Positions 1,960 to 52,619 of a stretch of DNA of 64,000 nt are shown piece after piece (the stretch's first letter is position 1; the number at the start of each line of letters is the position of its first letter). This DNA is from Patescibacteria group bacterium. GTDB taxonomy: Bacteria > Patescibacteriota > Patescibacteriia > 2-01-FULL-39-33. The stretch lies in assembly GCA_038065695.1 (NCBI GenBank), contig JBBTQN010000016.1:11738-75737 (forward strand), in the 5' to 3' direction. The notes beneath the pieces are model-generated. The model ran no database searches, was not told the DNA's origin, and worked only from the letters and a program-made list of their open reading frames with translations. The position numbers and the translations under genes are program-made.

Positions 1960-2340
1960 AACCTCCTCCTCCGTCATTCCCGTCCCCGCCTTCGCGAGGA
2001 TAAACTCCAGCGGGAATCCAGACTAATTCCAATTAAATCCGTGACTTTATCCTGGATCCCGGCTTTCGCCGGGATGACGGAAAAAAAAGGAGAAAAAATG
2101 TGGGACAAAAAATCCCCGCGTAATAAGACATCTTATCACGCGGGGGAACAAAAGGGGTCAAAGGGGTCAGGACTGCCCGCCTGCTTCGCTATGCGAAGCA
2201 TTGCGGGCAGGCTTGCGGACGGCCGCGAAACGCCAAAAGTCGTAGAAATCATCCCCAAGCCAGCCGAGGTCCAAGACGCGCCTAGCACTGCCCCCGTCGA
2301 GGCAGGCGAAGCGACGACCGCCGACGGCACTACGCCAAGT
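1960..2340. repeat. GC-rich hairpin repeat region (tcattcccg...cgggaatccag; tcctggatcccggctttcgccgggatgacg; gcccgcctgc...gcgggcaggc)
   Basis: Local GC is far above that of flanking DNA and several perfect stems are present. The plus-frame translation gives the repeat-derived peptide SWIPAFAGMT. Confidence 0.6.
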
Positions 2341-2877
2341 TGAGCCCAGCGCTCCGATTGGAAACTGCCTTTGAAGTTCGGGCTGGGCAGCGCCCAGAGC
2401 CAGAAGCTCTTCAATCTTGGCGGGACGATAGCCGAGTTTGTCTATCTCGGCCAGTACCTCATCGCCGTTGTTGAAATGGCGGTTGAAATGAAGAAGCTCC
2501 ACCGTCACTTCTTGTTTGCCTGTTCCAGTGATTGGGAAGTGTTCGGCGGTGATGTCCGGGTTCTCCCGGTCATACTTGCCGGCGGTAATTATGTCGGCGA
2601 GGGATTGGGTGTAATCGATGACGAGATTGTATTTCCCTGCCACATAGCGGCTGGCTTCTTCGGCCGCTTGGCGCGCCGTTTGAGCAGTAAAGATTTCCGC
2701 GACTTTGCGAGTTGTGATAATCATTTCCGCGACTCTTTGTTTTAAATTTTTATCCGTCTCTAAAAGACGCAAATCATCGTCGCTTCCGCCTGCCGCGAGC
2801 ACCTCATCGGCAAGCGCCTTAAAAACCTGAAACGCCTTGCCAAACGCCTGCAAAAATTCACTCTTTGGCTTACCCAT
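2167..2877 (-). CDS. hypothetical protein; C-terminal ~60 aa read through the GC-rich repeat region
   Basis: The ORF 2167..2916 is minus-strand. The likely start is MGKPKSEF at 2877, and there is no recognisable family. The 3' end overlaps repeat DNA (2167-2340). Confidence 0.45.
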   Translation of the reverse strand: MGKPKSEFLQAFGKAFQVFKALADEVLAAGGSDDDLRLLETDKNLKQRVAEMIITTRKVAEIFTAQTARQAAEEASRYVAGKYNLVIDYTQSLADIITAGKYDRENPDITAEHFPITGTGKQEVTVELLHFNRHFNNGDEVLAEIDKLGYRPAKIEELLALGAAQPELQRQFPIGALGSTWRSAVGGRRFACLDGGSARRVLDLGWLGDDFYDFWRFAAVRKPARNASHSEAGGQS

Positions 2878-3025
2878 CTTCTCACTCCTTATTTTTATGG
2901 CCTGCCACCTGTCCAAAGCCCATCTCCGGACTTATGGCTTACCATTATCCGCGTTAAAAGGACAACGAGTCATTATAGCAACCTTCGATAATTCTGTCAA
3001 ACTGCTATTTAGCGCATAACAAAAC

Positions 3026-3165
3026 GCGTAGAGACGTTGTGCTGCAACGTCTCCGGAGCCGTAGCATCGCTACGGCTCTACCTAACAAAACCGCCCTTCA
3101 GCGGTTTCATTGTAGAGACGCGGCGGTGCCGCGTCTCAAAAGACGCCCCAGCGGGGCGTCTGCTA
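3026..3165. repeat. cluster of five consecutive GC-rich hairpins (agagacgttgtgctgcaacgtctc; gagccgtagcatcgctacggctc; aaaccgcccttcagcggttt; gagacgcggcggtgccgcgtctc; agacgccccagcggggcgtct)
   Basis: Perfect inverted repeats read directly. They belong to the gtagagacgc...gcgtctctac family, also seen at 27728-27755, 45568-45630, 54927-54995 and 60215-60244. Confidence 0.8.
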
Positions 3166-3175
3166 CATTTTTATA

Positions 3176-4072
3176 TTACAGCCCAAATTTTTTAATATTT
3201 TCATTCGCGATTTTCTGGATTTTGGCGATTTCCGCTTTGCCGGCCGGCGAAGCAAATAAATGTTTGAATCTTTTTTGAACTTTTAAAAATTCTTCAACGG
3301 GGATTTTTTTATTTATCTTTATCCTCCCGACCAGCTCGCCGTTGACATATTCAATTATCGGATAAGATCCCGACTGAACCGCGAGTTGCGCCACCGAAAC
3401 CGTGTCTTTGGCTTCAATCCCCCAGCCCGGCACGCACGGCGTATAAATTTGTAAATATTTCGGACCCTTGATGCTCAAGGCCTTTTTCACCTTGGCCGTC
3501 AAATCCGGCAGATCGCCGACCGTGACGGTCGCCACATAAGGCAAATGATGCGCCAAAGCGATTCCGATCATATCCTTTTTAGACAAATCATTGCCGAAAG
3601 AACGCTCCCCGGCTGGAGTGGTGGTGGTATTAGCGTCCAGAGGCGTGGCGCCGCTGGACTGGTAGCCGGTATTTTGGTACGCCTCGTTGTCGTAGCAGAT
3701 GTATAAAATATTTTCGCCCCGTTCCCACATGCCGGAAATATTTCCCAAGCCGATGTCAAAAGTCGCGCCGTCCCCGCCGATGGCAATAATATTTATGTCT
3801 TTGTCTTTTTTTTGGTATTTCAAGGCCGCCAAAATGCCGGAAGCGACCGAGGAGGCATTTTCAAACAAGCTATGGATGTAAGGCGTCTTAAAAATAGTGT
3901 TGGGATACTTCGTCGTCGTCACTTCCATGCAGCCGGTGGCGTTGGTGATGATCGTGTCGGGCCCGGCCGCGTCAATTATAAGCCGCAGCGCCACGATCAT
4001 CCCGCAGCCGGCGCAAGCGCTGTGCTTCGGGGAAAAATTTCTGGATAGGGGAGATTTATATTTTTTATTCAT
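3176..4072 (-). CDS. porB: pyruvate/2-oxoacid:ferredoxin oxidoreductase beta subunit (TPP-binding)
   Basis: Carries HSACAGCGMIVALRL and GCME Cys motifs, the IAIGGDGATFDIG TPP-binding motif and YDNEAYQNTG. Confidence 0.9.
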   Translation of the reverse strand: MNKKYKSPLSRNFSPKHSACAGCGMIVALRLIIDAAGPDTIITNATGCMEVTTTKYPNTIFKTPYIHSLFENASSVASGILAALKYQKKDKDINIIAIGGDGATFDIGLGNISGMWERGENILYICYDNEAYQNTGYQSSGATPLDANTTTTPAGERSFGNDLSKKDMIGIALAHHLPYVATVTVGDLPDLTAKVKKALSIKGPKYLQIYTPCVPGWGIEAKDTVSVAQLAVQSGSYPIIEYVNGELVGRIKINKKIPVEEFLKVQKRFKHLFASPAGKAEIAKIQKIANENIKKFGL

Positions 4073-4120
4073 AAAATTATAGTGGAATAAAACTACTTAA
4101 ATCACTAACAATAGAATTGT

Positions 4121-4969
4121 TTACTTCTTCTGCTTTTGTTCGAGATAATTTTTAACTTTATTAATTGTAGAATAATCATATCCCTTCGCCTTAAGTAATT
4201 CCACGCAGACAGAAGGATCTTCTCCTTTATAATATTTTATATCATCAAAACACCTCGCAATATTAAAAGGATAATCAATGCTGTATCCTGACATTTTTTC
4301 TACACCAATACATATATTACAATCATCATTAATATTATTTTTTTCATTAAACATTTTATTCCTTTGATTTATATAATACCAAAACTGGTAAGCCGTCATG
4401 CAAGCGTTCGGATAATAGTCTTTTTCATCGGTGATTTGCCAGTCATCATAAGGCCAAGCAAAATAATCAAGATCTAATTTATATTTATCATATAATTCAT
4501 CACATAATTTCAAATCGTTAGTGGCCATTAGTTTATCATGATAAGTATTAAATAAGCACAGATTTTTATCAGCAGAAAGAGAGCACAATTCCGGCGCTGG
4601 TATGGCGGGTACGCCCAAATAACTGCCAAAAAACAACCGCCAAGCTACAAATCCGCCAAATAATAGAAAACAACAAAATCCGATGATTGAAAAAATACGC
4701 AAGAATAAATTTTTCTTTATTTCTTTTAATAATAATATAAAAAATAATATAATCCATAATACCAAACCAACGACCGCGCCAAACATAAACGAAATAGCTT
4801 GTCCGATATTAAAACCAAAAAAGTCGCCCCTCAATAAAAAAGCGCCCCCCGTATAAATAATCAAAAACACGATGAAAGCTACCAAAAATGAAGAGGAAAA
4901 AATTTCAAATTTATTTAATTTATTACGCTCCTCGGCAGAGCGCATAAGCTGATCACTTAGTTGGTTCAT
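4121..4969 (-). CDS. hypothetical integral membrane protein with Cys-rich (8 Cys) C-terminal domain; very AT-rich, inserted between porA and porB
   Basis: Three to four predicted TM helices (FLVAFIVFLIIYTGGAFLL, FMFGAVVGLVLWIILFFILLL, IIGFCCFLLFGGFVAW) are followed by a Cys-rich domain (CSLSADKNLC...CDEL...CMTAY...CNICIG...CFDD...CVEL). Codon usage is dominated by AAT, TAT and AAA. Confidence 0.6.
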   Translation of the reverse strand: MNQLSDQLMRSAEERNKLNKFEIFSSSFLVAFIVFLIIYTGGAFLLRGDFFGFNIGQAISFMFGAVVGLVLWIILFFILLLKEIKKNLFLRIFSIIGFCCFLLFGGFVAWRLFFGSYLGVPAIPAPELCSLSADKNLCLFNTYHDKLMATNDLKLCDELYDKYKLDLDYFAWPYDDWQITDEKDYYPNACMTAYQFWYYINQRNKMFNEKNNINDDCNICIGVEKMSGYSIDYPFNIARCFDDIKYYKGEDPSVCVELLKAKGYDYSTINKVKNYLEQKQKK

Positions 4970-4989
4970 ATATTTATTAAATTATTAAA

Positions 4990-6165
4990 TTATTTTCCGA
5001 CGAAAATTATTTTCTCTTTGGTTCTCTTGGATATCTCAATGGTCTTTTTTATCATCTCCTTGGTAATATCGCGACCGCCCAAACCCATGATAACACCGGT
5101 GATTTTCGCTTGGCTTTGGCCATACAAAGCGCGCTTTATCTCGGTCGCTAAAATCCCTTCAGTGCCGAGTGAAATCGATTTGTCCAGCACGGCGATATTT
5201 TCGGCCTTAACCAACAATTTAATAATTTCATCGTCCGGAAACGGCCGGAAAGCGGTGATTTTTAAGATACCGATTGTGTTTTTGTGTTTTTGTGTTTTTG
5301 TGTTTTTGTGATATTCATCCACCGCCTCTTTCATTGTCCCTAAAACTGAACCCATCGCCACGATGACGGTCTTGGCGTTTTTATCGCCATAATATTCCGC
5401 CAAGTTAAGCGGCCGGCCGAATATTTTTTTAAAATTATCCATTTCCTTTTTAATCTCCGCTTTTGAGGCGGCCAAATCATCGTGCAAACTTTTCCTGATT
5501 TCAAAATAATGTTCCGGCGTGACCAGCGGCCCGAAAGTCAAAGGATTTTTTACATCCAATTTTTCCGAGGACTGATAAGCCGGCAAATATTTTTTGATTT
5601 TTTCCGCGGCTTCAATTTCCACCGGCTCCACCACATGAGTGAGAATAAAGCCGTCCAAATTCACCATCACCGGAAGCTCCAATTTCTCCCCCACTTTATA
5701 AGCCAAGATATGTAAGTCACAAACTTCCTGCACGGTCTCGCCAAAAAGCATTATCCAGCCGGCGTCGCGCATAATCATCACGTCCTGCTGATCATTCCAG
5801 ATATTTATCGGCGCCGAAACTGAACGATTGGCGTCGGTCATAACCACCGGGAGCCGCATGCCCGCCAGATTATAAAGCACTTCAGCCATAAGCAGTAACC
5901 CCTGCGAAGAAGTGGCGGTATAAGTCCTCACCCCGGCCGCCGACGCGCCCAAAACGATGGAAGCCGCGGCGAATTCGCTTTCCGCCCGCACATATTCAAA
6001 ATCCGCCTTGCCGGCCTCGCTGTTGGGCTGGCCATCGGCTTTCAGCTTGGCCAGTTCTTCCACAATATGCGTCTGCGGCGTGATGGGATACGCAGAAACC
6101 ACACCTACGCCGATATTATTAATTGTCTCGGCAATCGCCCGACTGCCTTCTAATATTTTTTTCAT
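4990..6165 (-). CDS. porA: pyruvate/2-oxoacid:ferredoxin oxidoreductase alpha subunit
   Basis: Reads MKKILEGSRAIAETINNIGVGVVSAYPITPQTHIVEELAKL..., which is the POR alpha domain architecture. Confidence 0.9.
   Translation of the reverse strand: MKKILEGSRAIAETINNIGVGVVSAYPITPQTHIVEELAKLKADGQPNSEAGKADFEYVRAESEFAAASIVLGASAAGVRTYTATSSQGLLLMAEVLYNLAGMRLPVVMTDANRSVSAPINIWNDQQDVMIMRDAGWIMLFGETVQEVCDLHILAYKVGEKLELPVMVNLDGFILTHVVEPVEIEAAEKIKKYLPAYQSSEKLDVKNPLTFGPLVTPEHYFEIRKSLHDDLAASKAEIKKEMDNFKKIFGRPLNLAEYYGDKNAKTVIVAMGSVLGTMKEAVDEYHKNTKTQKHKNTIGILKITAFRPFPDDEIIKLLVKAENIAVLDKSISLGTEGILATEIKRALYGQSQAKITGVIMGLGGRDITKEMIKKTIEISKRTKEKIIFVGK
5275..5310. repeat. 8-bp microsatellite (gtgttttt)x~4.5 inside porA coding sequence (encodes KNTKTQKHKNT in frame)
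   Basis: Direct reading of tgtgtttttgtgtttttgtgtttttgtgtttttgtg. Confidence 0.85.
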
Positions 6166-6177
6166 AAACCAAAAAGA

Positions 6178-7209
6178 TTAATACTTTATATACGCCTTTA
6201 CTAAGTCTTCATCTCCTCCGGCATTAATAAATTCTTGTAAACGCGGATCGTCCGAAAGATTATATTTTTTTCTGAAATCAATAATCGCCTTCGCTTGATT
6301 GATATCTTTTTTATTTTCAAAGTCGGCTAAATCGCGGAAACAGTCTCGTCCCAATGAATTGATTAATTTCGCCGTTGGTTTCAACCTGGCGGAAAAATAA
6401 GGCCTGACCAAATCGTAATAAACCTGATTTTGATCATCGAATTTATCATGATTCAATTCATATATTTTCTCCACCATATCGGAAAACAGCCGTGATAAAA
6501 ATTCATACTCCGAGTTTCCTTCACTGATCACGATCATCCCCTCTTCAATCTCTTCGGCTGAAAGCAACCTTTTGTCGCGTTCAATCGCCAACTCGCGATA
6601 TTTAGGATGCTGGCGAATATTATTCCTAAAAAAATCAACATTCAATCTGTCGGTGATCATCTCGTCCCAGCCCTTAAAATGAAATTCCTCTTTTTCTTCC
6701 ACTGGTTTCCCATGTCTTATACTCCAACCTTGTCGTAATTGATCTCTTATTTCTATCGTGTCATCGGTGGCGACAATATAATGTTTCGTGACCGCGTAAA
6801 GATGAAGAAATTCATGAGTTAAAATGTCCAATATCGCGAGTAAGTTATTTTTTTGTTCCTTTAAAAACTCTTCACAGATAAAAATACCTTGATTATTGCA
6901 AAACGCCGGATTGACTTCGTAATCCCTATTATAATTTTTCTCACATAAATCTCGGGGTAAAATATGAATCATGGATGGAGTTATTTCAATCGGCTCAATT
7001 TCAATTTGTCTTTTAATAGTTTCTCTTAATTCAAGTGCCAGCCATTCTATGTGATTTACTAGTTCCGGTGATTTCTCCACTTCGCCCTCAACGGTCATTT
7101 CTAAAAAATCTTTGAAGTCAGCTGAAACTACCTCATTATCTTCTCCCTCAAGCGGCCTCTTGCTTGAATCGACAAAATATAAATTTTTTTCAAGTTTGCC
7201 TTCGGGCAT
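6178..7209 (-). CDS. HExxH-motif protein, paralog A of tandem triplet (putative zincin-like metallohydrolase, unknown family)
   Basis: Carries HEFLH and a C-terminal IIDFRKKYNLSDD, and shares GEVEKSPEL...IHILP motifs with the neighbouring paralogs. Confidence 0.7.
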   Translation of the reverse strand: MPEGKLEKNLYFVDSSKRPLEGEDNEVVSADFKDFLEMTVEGEVEKSPELVNHIEWLALELRETIKRQIEIEPIEITPSMIHILPRDLCEKNYNRDYEVNPAFCNNQGIFICEEFLKEQKNNLLAILDILTHEFLHLYAVTKHYIVATDDTIEIRDQLRQGWSIRHGKPVEEKEEFHFKGWDEMITDRLNVDFFRNNIRQHPKYRELAIERDKRLLSAEEIEEGMIVISEGNSEYEFLSRLFSDMVEKIYELNHDKFDDQNQVYYDLVRPYFSARLKPTAKLINSLGRDCFRDLADFENKKDINQAKAIIDFRKKYNLSDDPRLQEFINAGGDEDLVKAYIKY

Positions 7210-7231
7210 ATAAATTATCCGCCGAAATTAT

Positions 7232-8245
7232 TTATTTCTTAATCATTTTTAACGCTTGCTCAATATTTTTATCCTCCGGCAAGCCGTATTTTTTTCTAAA
7301 ATTGATGATTTGATGAAGAGTATCATCCCCTTCAACTAAGTCGATATTAGCCAAATCAGTGAAGGCGCCATCACCTAATTTCCTTATCAATTTTCCCGCC
7401 CCAGGTAAATCGCCATTAAAATAATGATAAAAAAATTTGTTTCTCACTTCTAAATCATCTTCAAAATCATCTTGATGGCGTTTATAAATCGATTCATATA
7501 AATCTTTGAATAACGACTCTAAAAAATAATAAACACCAGAGAATCGGTTAGGAAGAACTGTTTTTCCTTCTTCTTTTTGTTTAGTGGTTAATTTTTTTTC
7601 CAATTGCTCTACCTGTTCAGCAAAACGCGGATCTTTAGATATCTTTCGAATATATATCAATCTGGTTAAATATTGCGTGATCGCTTCATTTAGCCCAAAG
7701 AATAAACGACGCGACTTTTTCACATCTTGGTAGGTGGCTCCATATCCGACAGCATAACCTTTTTGATATGGTCTAACATGGACTCGGCCTTCTTGATCAA
7801 TAAATTGAGAAAACTTATGAACCGAGGATTGATGTAAAAATTCATGTACTAATAAAAGTATTTTTTCTAATTCACTAACTTTATTATCCTTCAACTTATC
7901 AGCATCTAACCAAATACCAAAATCGGTTGCTGTAAAGGTTGGAATTCTTTCGGGATTATGAGAGCTAAAGATAGATAGAAGAGTGTCGTGAGGTAATAGG
8001 TGTACTAAATTTCTGTCGTTAAAAACATTAACTTCAACACCGAATTCTCTCGCCTCATTATGGACAATCTTTCTGGCTGAATCAATGAGCTCGGAAAGTT
8101 CTTTAGACTTTTCCAACTCTTTTTCCTTAACAAATTCAGAAACAATAGTATAATTACTATCTTCTTTCATTGGATTATTAAAGTCAGCCCCTTCATCTGA
8201 CTTTTCATTTTTAATAAAAATGTTTTTTCTTAATCCTTCAGACAT
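7232..8245 (-). CDS. HExxH-motif protein, paralog B of tandem triplet
   Basis: Carries LVHEFLHQSSV, GLNEAITQYLT and INFRKKYGLPED. The ORF track starts at 8305, but the Met at 8245 avoids overlap with paralog C. Confidence 0.65.
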   Translation of the reverse strand: MSEGLRKNIFIKNEKSDEGADFNNPMKEDSNYTIVSEFVKEKELEKSKELSELIDSARKIVHNEAREFGVEVNVFNDRNLVHLLPHDTLLSIFSSHNPERIPTFTATDFGIWLDADKLKDNKVSELEKILLLVHEFLHQSSVHKFSQFIDQEGRVHVRPYQKGYAVGYGATYQDVKKSRRLFFGLNEAITQYLTRLIYIRKISKDPRFAEQVEQLEKKLTTKQKEEGKTVLPNRFSGVYYFLESLFKDLYESIYKRHQDDFEDDLEVRNKFFYHYFNGDLPGAGKLIRKLGDGAFTDLANIDLVEGDDTLHQIINFRKKYGLPEDKNIEQALKMIKK

Positions 8246-8264
8246 ATTATTTTTTAAACAATTT

Positions 8265-9209
8265 TTAAATCTTTTCCTTAAGCAATCCTTTTTCAGAATA
8301 TTCAATTCTACCAGTTAATATTTCATCTTCCGGCAAGCCGTACTTTTCTCGGAAAGCCGCGATTTGTTTTAATGTCTCAAGAGAGTCATCTGGTTTTAAT
8401 CGGGAAATATCAAGATAACTGTGGGGATTTAGGATCGCAAAAAGAGGCAACAGCGAACCGCCTGAAAAATAAGATTTTACCATTTCCTTAATCACTTCAT
8501 CTTTGTCTTGATATTTATCTTGATTAACTTCTCTTAATTTTTCGGCTAAATCATCAAGTAATCTTTCCAAATAGTCATAACCGCGCGGTCCCGGTATCTC
8601 TTTTTCTTTCGCTGCTCCTTCTTCCTGGTTTTGGATATGATCCCGATAAAATTTTTTTGTCAAATATTGAGTAATTGTTTCATTTAAACCGCCAAAACAC
8701 ATTTCGGTTTTTGATAAATCGGCATAACCGCCTCTTTTTACCGACAAACCAGCATAAAAATCAAATTTTTTCTCCTCATCTTCCAAATAGGCAAGTTTTG
8801 TTATTGATGCTTGATGGAATAATTCATGAATCACGGCAATGAGTGAATCAATATCGACCGTCTTAAAAAATTTTTCATTCAATAAAATGCCGCGATTTGT
8901 GTGAGTGCCATAAATATTTTCATGAAGAGGCCGTTTTACATACGCCCGAAGTTTTTCTTCCGGCAAAAAATGGACGATATCAGCCGTAAGATTAAACGGC
9001 TCCACCCCGTATTCGGCGGCTATCTCGCGAATCTTTTCTGTCAACCAATCAATCTTTTCCGACCATTCCGGAGATTTCTCTATCTCTCCTTCAAATGGAC
9101 GGCTCTGACACTCACTTAATTCTTTTTTTAAATCGTCTTCTTTTTCTTTGGAAACCTGCTTTTGTTCCTTGCCGCGGAAAAAAATATTTTCTTTTAAGAT
9201 TTGTCTCAT
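8265..9209 (-). CDS. HExxH-motif protein, paralog C of tandem triplet; start overlaps porG stop (ATGA)
   Basis: Carries VIHELFHQASITK, GLNETITQYLT and AAFREKYGLPEDE. Its ATG at 9209-9207 overlaps the porG TGA at 9208-9206. Confidence 0.7.
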   Translation of the reverse strand: MRQILKENIFFRGKEQKQVSKEKEDDLKKELSECQSRPFEGEIEKSPEWSEKIDWLTEKIREIAAEYGVEPFNLTADIVHFLPEEKLRAYVKRPLHENIYGTHTNRGILLNEKFFKTVDIDSLIAVIHELFHQASITKLAYLEDEEKKFDFYAGLSVKRGGYADLSKTEMCFGGLNETITQYLTKKFYRDHIQNQEEGAAKEKEIPGPRGYDYLERLLDDLAEKLREVNQDKYQDKDEVIKEMVKSYFSGGSLLPLFAILNPHSYLDISRLKPDDSLETLKQIAAFREKYGLPEDEILTGRIEYSEKGLLKEKI

Positions 9210-9757
9210 AAAACTAAATTATTACTCACTACTTCGTACCCTCTCTTCGCCGCTTCTATATTCTTTTTTCCCACTTCGCCCTCAAATTTTTTACTAATCG
9301 CCTTTTCTACCGCTTTGAAACTGACTAAACCCGACAAGCCGGCAAAAGCGCCGACTAAAACCGTGTTAAAAATCGGCTTGCCGATGGTTTCTGTCGCAAT
9401 GTCAGTGGCAGCAATCGTTTTAATGGCCACGCCGGGCGGCGCTTTGAATTCCACCGCCGATCTTTTGGTGTTTATTAAAACGATCGTCCCTTTTTTCGCG
9501 CCCTTGAAAATTTCTACGATGTTAATTAAAGATTCATCTTGAATAATAATATAATCCGGCTCATAAATTTGCGAGCGCAACCGGATAAATTTGTCGTCAA
9601 TCCTCACATACGCCTCCACCGGCGCGCCGCGCCGCTCCACGCCGAAATTAGGAAAGGCCTGCGAAAATTTGCCGTCATAAAAAATCGCTTCCGCCAGAAG
9701 CTCGGCCATCGTAACTGACCCTTGGCCGCCACGGCCATGAATACGGATTTCTATCAT
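9206..9757 (-). CDS. porG: pyruvate/2-oxoacid:ferredoxin oxidoreductase gamma subunit
   Basis: Reads MIEIRIHGRGGQGSVTMAELLAEAIFYDGKF...FPNFGVERRGAPV. Confidence 0.9.
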   Translation of the reverse strand: MIEIRIHGRGGQGSVTMAELLAEAIFYDGKFSQAFPNFGVERRGAPVEAYVRIDDKFIRLRSQIYEPDYIIIQDESLINIVEIFKGAKKGTIVLINTKRSAVEFKAPPGVAIKTIAATDIATETIGKPIFNTVLVGAFAGLSGLVSFKAVEKAISKKFEGEVGKKNIEAAKRGYEVVSNNLVL

Positions 9758-9761
9758 AAAA

Positions 9762-10517
9762 TTATTTCAATATTTCCAACGCCTTATTTATAATCTGCTC
9801 CCACTGCTCCTTGGTCACCACGCCTTCCAGCTTGTGGCCGTTGACGAAAAAAGTCGGCGTGCCTAAAACGCCCAAAATCGTCGCGTCGTTAAAATCCTCT
9901 TGGACCGCCGGCAGATATGTCCCCTTTTTAGCACAATCGTCGTATTTTGCCAAATCCAGTCCTGAACGCTTGGCGATGTCGCGCAAAATTTCATCGGTAA
10001 AACCTTGGCTCTGCCCCAAATACATCCGGTCGTGAACCGGCCAGAATTTACCTTGCTCATTAGCGCACAAAGCCGCCGCCGCGATGGTCGGCGAATTATT
10101 ATCAATGGCCGGATAATTCCGATAAATGAAAAAAATCTGTTTTTGGTAGCGGCTGATAATTTCCCTGATAATCGGAAATTCCTCGCCAGTATGCGGACAT
10201 TGGAAATCGCCGAATTGCACAATCACCAACTTGGCTTGAGGGTTGCCAAAAGCCGGTCGGCCGGTTTTTTCCACTAATTGGCGAACGGCGCTCTTAGTTC
10301 CGCTGACGGCAAAACTGTCCAAATCAGTTGAACGAACGGCGCTCTTTCCTCCGCTGACGGTAAAATTGTCCAAATTGGTTGAATTGGCGTTGGCATTCGC
10401 CTCACCGGAAATATTTTTATTTTTTGAAGAGTTAAAAACCGCGGCGGACATAAAGCCAGCCACAAATAGAATTAAAATCACGAATAAAATTAAAAAAAAT
10501 ATTAATAATTTTTTCAT
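9762..10517 (-). CDS. DsbA/thioredoxin-fold protein with N-terminal membrane anchor; active-site variant CPHT; contains 42-bp in-frame tandem duplication
   Basis: Has an N-terminal TM segment and FGDFQCPHTGEE. A duplicated DLDSFAVSG(G/T)KSAVR unit is encoded at ~10290-10375. Confidence 0.7.
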   Translation of the reverse strand: MKKLLIFFLILFVILILFVAGFMSAAVFNSSKNKNISGEANANANSTNLDNFTVSGGKSAVRSTDLDSFAVSGTKSAVRQLVEKTGRPAFGNPQAKLVIVQFGDFQCPHTGEEFPIIREIISRYQKQIFFIYRNYPAIDNNSPTIAAAALCANEQGKFWPVHDRMYLGQSQGFTDEILRDIAKRSGLDLAKYDDCAKKGTYLPAVQEDFNDATILGVLGTPTFFVNGHKLEGVVTKEQWEQIINKALEILK

Positions 10518-10624
10518 TCCAAAAAAATATTAAAATATTGAATATTCAATATTTAAACTTGAAGTAATAAATCAATAAGATTTATCTTTATTATACCATA
10601 GGTTTATTTTTATTCCAAACATAT

Positions 10625-10652
10625 TGACTTCTTAAACCAAGTGTGATATACT
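10625..10652 (+). promoter_or_regulatory. sigma70-like promoter upstream of secG (TTGACT-16-TATACT with upstream TG)
   Basis: ttgact at 10625-10630 and tgatatact at 10644-10652. Confidence 0.5.
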
Positions 10653-10699
10653 AAAAACAAGCTGAAAATCGTATTTTTTTTCTCATCTTCAAAAAATAA

Positions 10700-10909
10700 A
10701 TGACCTTCAATATCATCCAATTAATCTTAGCCACCGCCTTAATTGTTGTCATTATTTTACAAAATCGGGGTTCGGGACTGGGCGCGGCTTTCGGCGGGGA
10801 CAGCAATGTCTATCGCACCAAACGGGGAATGGAAAAATTCCTGTTTCGGGCAACCGTCGTCATCGCGATAATTTTTTTCGTCACCGCGTTTATCAATGTC
10901 TTATATTAA
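10700..10909 (+). CDS. secG: preprotein translocase subunit SecG
   Basis: Reads LQNRGSGLGAAFGG...RTKRGMEKFL with two TM helices. Confidence 0.85.
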   Translation: MTFNIIQLILATALIVVIILQNRGSGLGAAFGGDSNVYRTKRGMEKFLFRATVVIAIIFFVTAFINVLY

Positions 10910-21735: not shown

Positions 21736-22563
21736 TTAGTTATCAACCTCAAATTCCTGACCGTCATAAATATCGTTTTTAAAGAAATTATAAAAAGTTT
21801 TATAAGCATCCCTTGCTTTGGGTGGTAAATTTTCTATAAACTCACATAAAGCGTCATTTTCCAAACAATATTGTTTTGTAAATTCCGCGATAAATTGATC
21901 AAATGAGCTCTCCATCTCTGACTTAGGATAAACCCGTCCGACCGAACCTGAAAAAAAGATTCCTTCATTTTTTAGAATTTGATAGTTATTATCCAGCACT
22001 GTTTTGGCATCAGGATTTAGTTGTTCAATTAGTAACCCAACCGGATGGCCAGCGGTTTCATGAATAACTGTCGCAGAAAAATTATCGGGATTTTTCCCAT
22101 TAAAAGTAATATATTTCGGGATTTCCGCTATACCGTCATGAAAAAATCCCTCACATCCTGCGGAAAGATAACTTTCTTCACTTTGGAAATTTATTTCTTT
22201 GAGATAGCCCTTTAGCTTTTCAAGGGGGATGAATTTTTCCACTAATTCCTTTATAGTCCGCAGCCGGTCGATTCCTAAGCGACTGGCCATTTTTAAAGGA
22301 ATTAAATAATAGAGAGGATCTATTAAAACAGCTGATTCTTTGCCTAGATTAAATAAATCGGATATGAGCTCTTTTTCTTTCAGCCATTCTCGTTCTTGCT
22401 CATCCCAATCGATGCTAGGGTCAGGATAATCTCGCCTTGCTTGAGGTATTTGCTGAATCACTTCGTCAATCCATTCCAAATTCCTCTTCTTGCATAGTTC
22501 AATCAGCTGTTTTCTTTCCTCAAAGTCATTTTCTTTACTTCTGGTAGGTTCTTTTTCTGTCAT
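21736..22563 (-). CDS. hypothetical protein with HExxH motif (VIHETAGHPVG)
   Basis: No recognisable family. AT-rich. Confidence 0.4.
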   Translation of the reverse strand: MTEKEPTRSKENDFEERKQLIELCKKRNLEWIDEVIQQIPQARRDYPDPSIDWDEQEREWLKEKELISDLFNLGKESAVLIDPLYYLIPLKMASRLGIDRLRTIKELVEKFIPLEKLKGYLKEINFQSEESYLSAGCEGFFHDGIAEIPKYITFNGKNPDNFSATVIHETAGHPVGLLIEQLNPDAKTVLDNNYQILKNEGIFFSGSVGRVYPKSEMESSFDQFIAEFTKQYCLENDALCEFIENLPPKARDAYKTFYNFFKNDIYDGQEFEVDN

Positions 22564-27727: not shown

Positions 27728-27755
27728 GTAGAGACGCATTGCCATGCGTCTCTAC
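27728..27755. repeat. hairpin gtagagacgcattgccatgcgtctctac overlapping ruvX stop codon
   Basis: A perfect 10-bp stem. Member of the gtagagacgc hairpin family. Confidence 0.85.
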
Positions 27756-52019: not shown

Positions 52020-52619
52020 TTAAATCTTTCTCCTTGCTTTGTATGCCAGGTATTTCTCCAAATATCTTTCTTCATTGTACTTATATGAAGGATTAAAATC
52101 AGCAATAATTATCGAACCATGACTCCTTATGGTTTTTTGCGTATACTTACTCCCATAATCAAGCATTTTTAATTTTCCGTCATCAATAGAAAAATTCCTT
52201 GGGTTCATCCAGTGGTGATTATCGCTACCAAAAAACGGATTGTCGTCATTTGAATCAAATAATATCTCTGTCGCCTGACTCAAAATTGCTCCCCATTCTT
52301 TTACTTGTTCTTTTCCCGCTAATTGGATATTGAAAAATCCAAACAAAGAAAAAAATGTCGGCTGCAAAATAGGATGTCTGGTTTTTAAATAAAAAATAAA
52401 TTCCCGCCAATTTTTTAAGATACCGCCAAATAAATATGACTTGACATCACCCATATCTTCTTTTTGAAGGGGCGGATTACCTCCAAAATAACGCTGGAGG
52501 TTTCTTTTTGTCAAAGCAATAGAAGTTAAAAAACGAATCATCGGCAGTTTAAAAACTAATCCCAATTTAGGAAACACGAATACAACCCGTGTCTTTCCTT
52601 TGCAAATATACATAGCCAA
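52020..52619 (-). CDS. hypothetical protein
   Basis: ORF only. A weak kinase-like HHWMNPRNFSIDDGKLKMLDYGS segment. Confidence 0.35.
   Translation of the reverse strand: MAMYICKGKTRVVFVFPKLGLVFKLPMIRFLTSIALTKRNLQRYFGGNPPLQKEDMGDVKSYLFGGILKNWREFIFYLKTRHPILQPTFFSLFGFFNIQLAGKEQVKEWGAILSQATEILFDSNDDNPFFGSDNHHWMNPRNFSIDDGKLKMLDYGSKYTQKTIRSHGSIIIADFNPSYKYNEERYLEKYLAYKARRKI

Follow-up and report, generated by a model that had tools for sequence, protein, structure and literature searches.

What is a gene for a Cys-rich membrane protein doing between porA and porB, which encode two subunits of one enzyme, pyruvate:ferredoxin oxidoreductase (POR)? The question is raised by ORF282, an open reading frame (ORF) of 282 codons in a 64,000-nucleotide stretch of a Patescibacteria genome (contig JBBTQN010000016.1, positions 11,738 to 75,737; hereafter the window). 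The host genome belongs to a Buchananbacteria-like clade and comes from Hainich groundwater (H43). A first-pass annotation had read ORF282 as a horizontally acquired or fast-evolving insertion that must be co-transcribed for porB to be expressed. Our analysis favors, at somewhat better than even confidence, the view that ORF282 is an orphan, fast-evolving, AT-rich accessory membrane-protein gene carried as cargo in a recurrent porA/porB slot, that it is not a POR subunit, and that it is likely transcribed by read-through with POR. The first reading was thus broadly right but incomplete, having missed that the slot is filled recurrently. ORF282 lies on the same strand as its neighbors; porA ends 20 nt ahead of it and porB begins 48 nt beyond it, as the annotation had stated:

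4121 to 4969, minus strand: coding sequence of ORF282, 282 aa from ATG to TAA (ORF list), orphan membrane protein
4990 to 6165, minus strand: porA, POR alpha subunit, intact (Pfam POR_N 3e-71, PFOR_II 5e-26; NCBIfam PorA 3e-132)
3176 to 4072, minus strand: porB, POR beta subunit, thiamine pyrophosphate-binding, intact (Pfam TPP_enzyme_C; NCBIfam PorB 7.5e-104)
4970 to 4989, minus strand: spacer from porA stop to ORF282 start, 20 nt, AT-only (from the sequence)
4073 to 4120, minus strand: spacer from ORF282 stop to porB start, 48 nt, ending TTTT-ATG (from the sequence)

The porA/porB junction is a recurrent slot for accessory genes

A porA-based scan that kept one genome per species returned 80 loci, 52 from Patescibacteria and 28 from other phyla. 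The closest relatives were 17 Buchananbacteria-like loci carrying both porA and porB (porA identity 62-74%), and a further 31 Patescibacteria loci had enough sequence for the content of the slot to be counted. ORF282 was found at the junction in none of the 17 closest species-level relatives. The annotation had asked whether porA and porB are adjacent elsewhere: in nine of these relatives they are, with gaps of 2-28 nt such as TAATTTTATG (L007 and L009). The gap is 130-265 nt in three more, one of which holds a 54-aa Cys ORF, and in L004 it measures 962 nt, its sole ORF (172 aa, GC content 0.60) being without a Pfam match. The remaining four (L010, L016, L019 and L080) carry rmlB and/or rmlA in the junction. 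Both por genes of the window align full-length to those of the relatives. The window junction, TAA-TTT[910 nt]TTTT-ATG, is a clean split when set against the relatives' spacer TAATTTTATG, and the TTTT-ATG that closes the 48-nt spacer matches the ancestral porA-porB spacer as seen in L007 and L009. Searches with tblastn detected no ORF282 remnants in the relatives' empty porA-porB junctions.

The rml genes in the slot (L010, 5114-6928; L016, 8591-10531; L019, 9140-9943; L080, 9288-11240) specify an RmlB-like dehydratase and an RmlA-like nucleotidyltransferase of dTDP-sugar metabolism. In L016 and L080 rmlA and rmlB are fused and encode one protein of about 650 aa.

Beyond the closest relatives, 1-3 genes of one VirB2-like pilin family were found directly 3' of porA in 29 of the 31 other Patescibacteria loci (L021-L024, L026-L038, L040-L047, L049, L052, L064 and L076) and at none of the 28 non-Patescibacteria por loci. 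These slot pilins combine a T4SS_pilin (PF18895)/VirB2-like hairpin with a Cys-rich C-terminal domain (5-114 Cys, mostly at least 14), and a DUF2283-like gene with a further ORF of about 70 aa often comes after them. The slot therefore recurrently holds proteins of ORF282-like architecture. VirB2-like pilins of Patescibacteria are known, in variable tandem arrays (PMC12102498). We found no description of por-pilin or por-ORF282 linkage in the searchable literature.

Because the junction is a recurrent accessory-gene slot, ORF282 is taken as cargo and not as an enzyme subunit. The junction, normally so short in the Buchananbacteria-like clade, has repeatedly taken up unrelated genes, namely rmlA/rmlB, the small Cys ORF and the ORF282 family, the last in two non-sister lineages. 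AT-rich ORFans and accessory genes in integration hot spots between core genes are a general bacterial phenomenon, and ORF282 belongs to this familiar kind. It resembles other hot-spot ORFans in lineage restriction, AT-rich synonymous sites, fast evolution and cargo that varies from lineage to lineage. It differs from them in that the spacer is only 2-28 nt, within the operon of a single enzyme, and in that no mobility genes or repeats were detected. Since the slot lies inside a one-enzyme operon, its cargo must be transcribed through for the downstream subunit.

The ORF282 family has one member in the slot of a second lineage and one outside por loci

An exhaustive phmmer search of 1.84e9 representative proteins found three members only: ORF282 itself, P0002 and P0003. 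P0002 (536 aa, E 1e-25) is 32% identical across ORF282 residues 5-265 (261 residues). P0003, a complete ORF of 119 aa (E 1e-4, 28% identity), matches the transmembrane (TM) domain only and lacks the Cys domain. The TM region of ORF282 aligns with P0003 and with P0002 residues 122-240. Seven of the eight ectodomain Cys are common to ORF282 and P0002, as are the motifs CxLSxDxNxC, LYxKYKLD, YPNxCM and WxYINxRNKMF. Because these Cys and motifs are kept in P0002, the outer domain is a real, constrained and probably disulfide-bonded fold.

No other relatives were detected. The ORF282 protein is identical on nine contigs from one population (Hainich groundwater, H43), and these contigs are all identical in DNA over about 3.1-3.3 kb. 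A word-index search with the single protein returned ORF282 itself only, and the same search with a three-sequence profile returned no further member. Four pattern scans of IMG/VR and JGI metagenomes, built on the full-length and on the ectodomain alignment, gave zero relatives; the first pair used uninformative N-terminal patterns. Sequence searches of Pfam, NCBIfam, PHROG, PADLOC and the PDB gave no match to ORF282, and tblastn found no ORF282 paralogs elsewhere in the window.

The NCBI record of the identical protein, MEK7653191.1, reads 'MAG: Yip1 family protein [Patescibacteria group bacterium]'. We could not reproduce this label, and Yip1 (PF04893) membership was rejected: ORF282 itself gives no Yip1 match, either in Pfam at E<=5 or in NCBIfam at E<=0.01. 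Only P0003 matched Yip1, and its 17.8 bits (E 0.0032) fall short of the cut-off of 28.6. Yip1 proteins and ORF282 are both small polytopic membrane proteins. Yip1 proteins typically have five TM helices, whereas ORF282 has three predicted TM helices and a large Cys-rich ectodomain. The database label is misleading.

P0003 begins 12 nt after the porA stop on two short contigs (L085 and L086), with a GC content of 0.36-0.375 against 0.48-0.505 for its porA. The porA of these contigs is 88% identical to that of L007, 86% to that of L009 and 71% to that of the window; L007 and L009 carry no insert, and 10 nt separate their porA from porB. Of the three known proteins of the family, two are thus encoded at this junction, in two non-sister lineages whose nearest relatives are insert-free. 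To account for this, one needs two gains or transfers at the same site, or no fewer than seven precise losses. The earlier picture of an insertion holds, though not as a one-off event, given P0003 in a second lineage and a slot that is recurrently filled. With 28% identity between ORF282 and P0003 where the flanking porA is 71% identical, ORF282 is evolving fast.

P0002 lies in a non-por locus (L084) that adjoins 23S, 5S and tRNA-Gly genes, and its gene has a GC content of 30.7% on a contig of 38%. The annotation had noted that homologs encoded routinely in por operons would make ORF282 an integral subunit; they are absent from all 17 relatives, and P0002 is in a non-por setting. At L084 the 23S gene runs over 2004-5575, a length of 3.57 kb where the model has 2.9 kb, and so contains insertions; 5S and tRNA-Gly follow, and the contig is without 16S. 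We read this layout as a typical organisation of the candidate phyla radiation type in the P0002 host. Directly after P0002 lies a 94-aa membrane-protein gene (8957-9241) that scored 13.7 bits (E 0.009) with the pilin-hairpin hidden Markov model (HMM) described below, which suggests a small VirB2-like gene beside the ORF282 homolog.

The setting of P0002 raises a distinctly unlikely origin for the family, as a mobile-element or phage-derived moron: selfish or defensive cargo, for example a superinfection-exclusion or receptor-masking membrane protein, that a phage or some other element would have brought in and targeted to highly expressed loci. The tRNA/rRNA neighborhood is a classic integration site, P0002 being next to tRNA-Gly and the rRNA operon. 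In each of the three genomes the gene is richer in AT than its host, and the distribution is patchy and non-vertical. However, ORF282 had no PHROG or PADLOC match, two pattern scans of IMG/VR found no relative, and no integrase, flanking repeat or phage gene lies nearby.

ORF282 is a genuine gene of atypical composition

Base composition and codon usage had been said to differ sharply from those of the por flanks, and measurement bore this out on every count. The GC content of ORF282 is 0.316, against 0.469 for porA and 0.485 for porB, and is the lowest among the 69 ORFs listed in the window, the ORF at 7232 to 8305 coming next at a marginally higher value. At third codon positions (GC3) the value is 0.300, against 0.556 for porA, 0.599 for porB and a window mean of 0.50 (z -2.4 for ORF282). 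At four-fold degenerate sites (GC4) ORF282 has 0.38, whereas the window averages 0.654 (standard deviation 0.107), and it ranks third lowest of 68 ORFs. This rank indicates that the shift is synonymous and goes beyond Lys, Asn, Tyr and Phe content alone. Codons are mostly AT-ending (AAT 16/19, TAT 17/19, TTT 25/27).

ORF282 is a genuine gene. That it might instead be a chance or decaying, non-functional ORF in an AT-rich spacer is hardly credible. Its extreme composition and lack of any family annotation would fit such an origin, but the chance of a 282-codon open frame at 31.6% GC is about 1.6e-10, the Cys pattern and motifs are kept in P0002 at 32% identity, and the predicted membrane topology is coherent. 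A spurious ORF was rejected on that chance value, on the conservation in P0002 and on the phmmer homologs. A non-coding RNA was likewise rejected, with zero Rfam matches across 2800-10800.

Low GC content is shared by other genes. P0002, P0003, three paralogous genes between porG and porA (described below) and the window ORFs at 21736 to 22563 and 52020 to 52619 are also AT-rich. The last two (both minus strand, GC3 0.31-0.32) have no Pfam or NCBIfam match and are orphan-like, and the genome thus has an AT-rich, lineage-specific gene class beyond the por cluster. Of the features that mark accessory genes, ORF282 shows atypical synonymous composition, and also an orthologous site that lacks the gene in relatives and a patchy distribution; mobility genes, flanking repeats and an identifiable donor were not found. 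The flanks of the insert show no target-site duplication, no inverted repeat and no meaningful direct repeat, and the cluster contains no integrase, transposase or phage gene. The claim that ORF282 is acquired or fast-evolving is consistent with its absence from relatives, the clean split and the atypical composition, although low GC is no proof of foreign origin.

ORF282 is a predicted membrane protein with a Cys-rich ectodomain

Topology was predicted from Kyte-Doolittle hydropathy and the positive-inside rule. The annotation had proposed 3-4 TM helices followed by an extracytoplasmic domain with 8 Cys and many Tyr, Trp and Asp residues; the prediction gave three helices and the same eight Cys:

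4631 to 4900, minus strand: three predicted TM helices, residues about 24-113 (Kyte-Doolittle peaks 2.3-3.0)
4124 to 4594, minus strand: Cys-rich extracytoplasmic domain, residues 126-282, 8 Cys, predicted outside

The helices fall at residues about 24-46, 56-80 and 91-113. The N-terminus is predicted inside and consists of a 22-residue charged tail without a signal-peptide-like cleavage region, and the basic TM2-TM3 loop (KEIKKNLFLR) is also predicted inside. The protein has 10 Cys in all, two in TM3 and eight in the ectodomain, and among the 157 outer residues are 18 Asp, 17 Tyr and 3 Trp. The sole CxxC (C217/C220) is not kept in P0002, and no Fe-S-type or haem motif is visible. AlphaFold2 models were all-alpha at unusable confidence, with a mean predicted local distance difference test score of 55 for the full-length protein (three-sequence alignment) and 54 for the ectodomain (two-sequence alignment). 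The outer domain is thus predicted, tentatively, as about 160 residues, mainly helical, with up to four disulfides. From the sequence we infer the topology, the disulfides and a role at the surface; such a role would likely lie in envelope, host-cell or phage interactions.

The position of ORF282 inside the por cluster, where it is probably co-transcribed, might suggest a POR-associated membrane component that tethers POR or passes electrons outward via its cysteines. In its favor, two family members out of three directly follow porA, and the cluster lacks porD, whose product normally serves as the electron-transfer subunit. We nevertheless consider such a component very improbable. ORF282 is absent from all 17 close relatives with intact por genes and from all 28 non-Patescibacteria por loci; its cysteines are predicted outside, and P0002 does not keep the single CxxC; neither an Fe-S nor a haem motif is present; and of its two homologs, P0002 is not encoded with por genes and P0003 is without the Cys domain. 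A POR subunit or obligate accessory was rejected because ORF282 is not conserved across related por operons, and an Fe-S or electron-transfer protein because it has no Fe-S motif and the CxxC is not conserved. Set against the four-subunit porGDAB system of the archaeal/Thermotoga type, the flanking genes of the window are bona fide porG, porA and porB, while ORF282 matches none of the four subunits.

Relationship of ORF282 to the slot pilins

ORF282 and the VirB2/TrbC-like pilins (PF18895) occupy the same slot 3' of porA, are highly variable and probably surface-exposed, and share an outline of three hydrophobic segments plus an exported Cys-rich domain. ORF282 differs in lacking both a cleavable signal peptide and a long first loop, in its helical ectodomain with 8 widely spaced Cys where the pilins are densely Cys-packed (14-114 Cys), in its strong AT shift and in its absence from the closest relatives.

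Residues 29-79 of ORF282 (TM1, loop and TM2) align with the pilin hairpin. With ORF282 as a single sequence, hhalign gave a probability of 62% (E 7e-5), and with the three-sequence profile 12%; ORF282 scored 28-37, against 9.5-20 for unrelated, reversed or shuffled TM controls. Pairwise BLASTP of ORF282 against pilin hairpins gave E values of 1e-5 to 2e-5, and about 17 of the top 25 matches in a relaxed tblastn search were pilin hairpins. P0002 and P0003 alone gave no match to the pilin hairpin. Pfam T4SS_pilin (PF18895) matched none of ORF282, P0002 and P0003 at E<=5, against 18-29 bits for por-slot members. Furthermore, the TM1-TM2 loop of ORF282 is predicted outside, opposite to the pilin hairpin, which has a cytoplasmic loop and both ends outside. 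On these alignments true homology between ORF282 and the pilins is less probable than its absence, while still a substantial minority prospect.

These alignments bear on an unlikely but serious alternative, that ORF282 and P0003 are hyper-diverged resident VirB2-like pilins kept in two lineages and deleted in the rest. The shared slot and gross architecture, three hydrophobic segments and then an outer Cys-rich domain, would fit this history, as would the hairpin alignments of residues 29-79 by hhalign, BLASTP, HMM and tblastn, and a rough neighbor-joining tree of porA that nests the Buchananbacteria-like clade within pilin-bearing lineages. However, the hhalign probability falls to 12% once homologs are added, P0002 and P0003 give no match alone, and PF18895 finds nothing at E<=5. 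The predicted membrane orientation of the hairpin is opposite to that of pilins, the ectodomains are unrelated, and pilin genes have near-host GC content where ORF282 lies 15 points below its flanks. Finally, seven or more precise losses would be needed, where the cargo reading gets by with two gains.

Transcription of the cluster

No terminator-like hairpin was found in either spacer flanking ORF282. A promoter scan found 23 sites where chance alone would give 21, none of them significant in the 48-nt spacer, so an internal porB promoter cannot be claimed. Candidate signals lie beyond porB:

3032 to 3161, minus strand: GC-rich palindromic hairpin cluster (AGACG...CGTCT), directly after porB, likely the end of the transcription unit
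3000 to 2972, minus strand: consensus promoter TTGACA-17-TATAAT, after the hairpins, for the next gene

With no hairpins in the spacers and the hairpin cluster after porB, read-through transcription is the simplest model. ORF282 would most likely be transcribed by read-through in a unit running dsbA-porG-...-porA-ORF282-porB and would be co-expressed with POR, and read-through of this kind would make porB expression dependent on transcription through ORF282. The first-pass claim that ORF282 is co-transcribed for porB expression agrees with the lack of a spacer terminator and with hairpins only after porB; the co-transcription itself is what we infer from these signals.

The AGACG-N5-15-CGTCT palindromes occur eight times in the window, where 0.13 would be expected by chance. 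A stack of three directly follows porB (3032-3052, 3116-3136 and 3141-3161) and the others lie at 27732, 45573, 45606, 54930 and 60221. They look like a genome-specific family of terminators or of elements resembling repetitive extragenic palindromes.

Neighboring genes

On the minus strand the order is dsbA-like, porG, three HExxH paralogs, porA, ORF282 and porB:

9762 to 10517, minus strand: dsbA-like gene, membrane-anchored, thioredoxin-fold, active site CPHT (Pfam Thioredoxin_4/DSBA)
9206 to 9757, minus strand: porG, POR gamma subunit (Pfam POR 2.6e-42)
6178 to 9209, minus strand: three AT-rich paralogous orphans of 343, 357 and 314 aa with HExxH...E, between porG and porA
8265 to 9209, 7232 to 8305 and 6178 to 7209, minus strand: the individual paralogs

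Relatives have the order porG-porD-porA-porB, whereas the window is without porD (no tblastn match anywhere in it, best E 0.13) and has the three extra orphans in the stretch between porG and porA that holds porD in relatives. The porD product has 91 aa and 8-10 Cys (two 4Fe-4S ferredoxin clusters); the gene sits between porG and porA in most relatives and was found at 56 loci by clustering and at nine more via tblastn. The three paralogs are 27-32% identical to each other, with the HExxH and a downstream Glu invariant, and look like carriers of a gluzincin metalloprotease-like motif. Their family is itself orphan: searches turned up only L018, at the equivalent position, and a single further protein.

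A dsbA-like gene lies directly before porG in 48 of the 52 Patescibacteria loci and in none of the 28 others (linked loci are listed as L004-L052, L064, L074, L076 and L080). Among 49 copies surveyed, the active site is CxxC in 38 and CxxS/T in 11, the latter including the monothiol CPHT of the window. On the predicted topology ORF282 has the extracytoplasmic domain with conserved paired Cys expected of a DsbA-dependent exported protein.

The dsbA-like gene contains a 51-nt x2 in-frame tandem repeat (10282-10383). A perfect 8-nt x4.6 tandem repeat of TTGTGTTT inside porA (5274-5310) encodes HKNTKTQKHKNT, and a change by a single unit, up or down, would put porA out of frame. An 8-nt x2.6 tandem repeat of TTATTAAA (4974-4994, Tandem Repeats Finder) covers the stop codon of porA and the spacer leading to ORF282.

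Weighing of the evidence and implications

Several observations weigh against ORF282 as accessory cargo of a recurrent slot. No mobility gene or inverted repeat flanks the insert, nor was a target-site duplication found, and its low GC content may reflect relaxed constraint and AT-biased mutation as well as recent transfer. Co-transcription with the por genes is predicted from the DNA. The CPHT of the window DsbA-like protein, in place of CxxC, weakens the proposed local link to oxidative folding. In a hairpin HMM search of 3383 ORFs, ORF282 was the best non-family match (14.9 bits, E 0.004), all others reaching at most 7.9 bits apart from the 94-aa gene at L084. Lastly, the slot directly 3' of porA holds two of the three members of the ORF282 family and, elsewhere, an architecturally similar family, which leaves room for a functional tie to the por cluster or for descent from an ancestral occupant.

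A broader proposal, which we consider quite unlikely, is that the junction is a conserved expression slot tying POR, the central fermentative enzyme, to variable, disulfide-rich VirB2-like surface proteins, with the dsbA-like gene heading the unit and with ORF282 and P0003 as hyper-diverged VirB2-like derivatives. If this were true, the slot would hold a pilin-like module functionally coupled to POR expression, for example host-contact structures linked to metabolic state, and not random cargo.

As accessory cargo, ORF282 is by itself one further lineage-specific orphan membrane protein, with small direct payoff, and the conserved dsbA-por-pilin arrangement is more notable than ORF282. Across the 52 loci the Patescibacteria por cluster is not a tight enzyme operon: a dsbA-like gene usually comes first, and porA and porB are split by exported Cys-rich membrane proteins, which belong to the VirB2-like pilins in the majority of lineages and to the ORF282 family in two. 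The slot offers a testable place to ask how ultra-small episymbionts acquire, express and turn over the genes for their surface proteins, and whether such genes are deliberately co-expressed with core energy metabolism.

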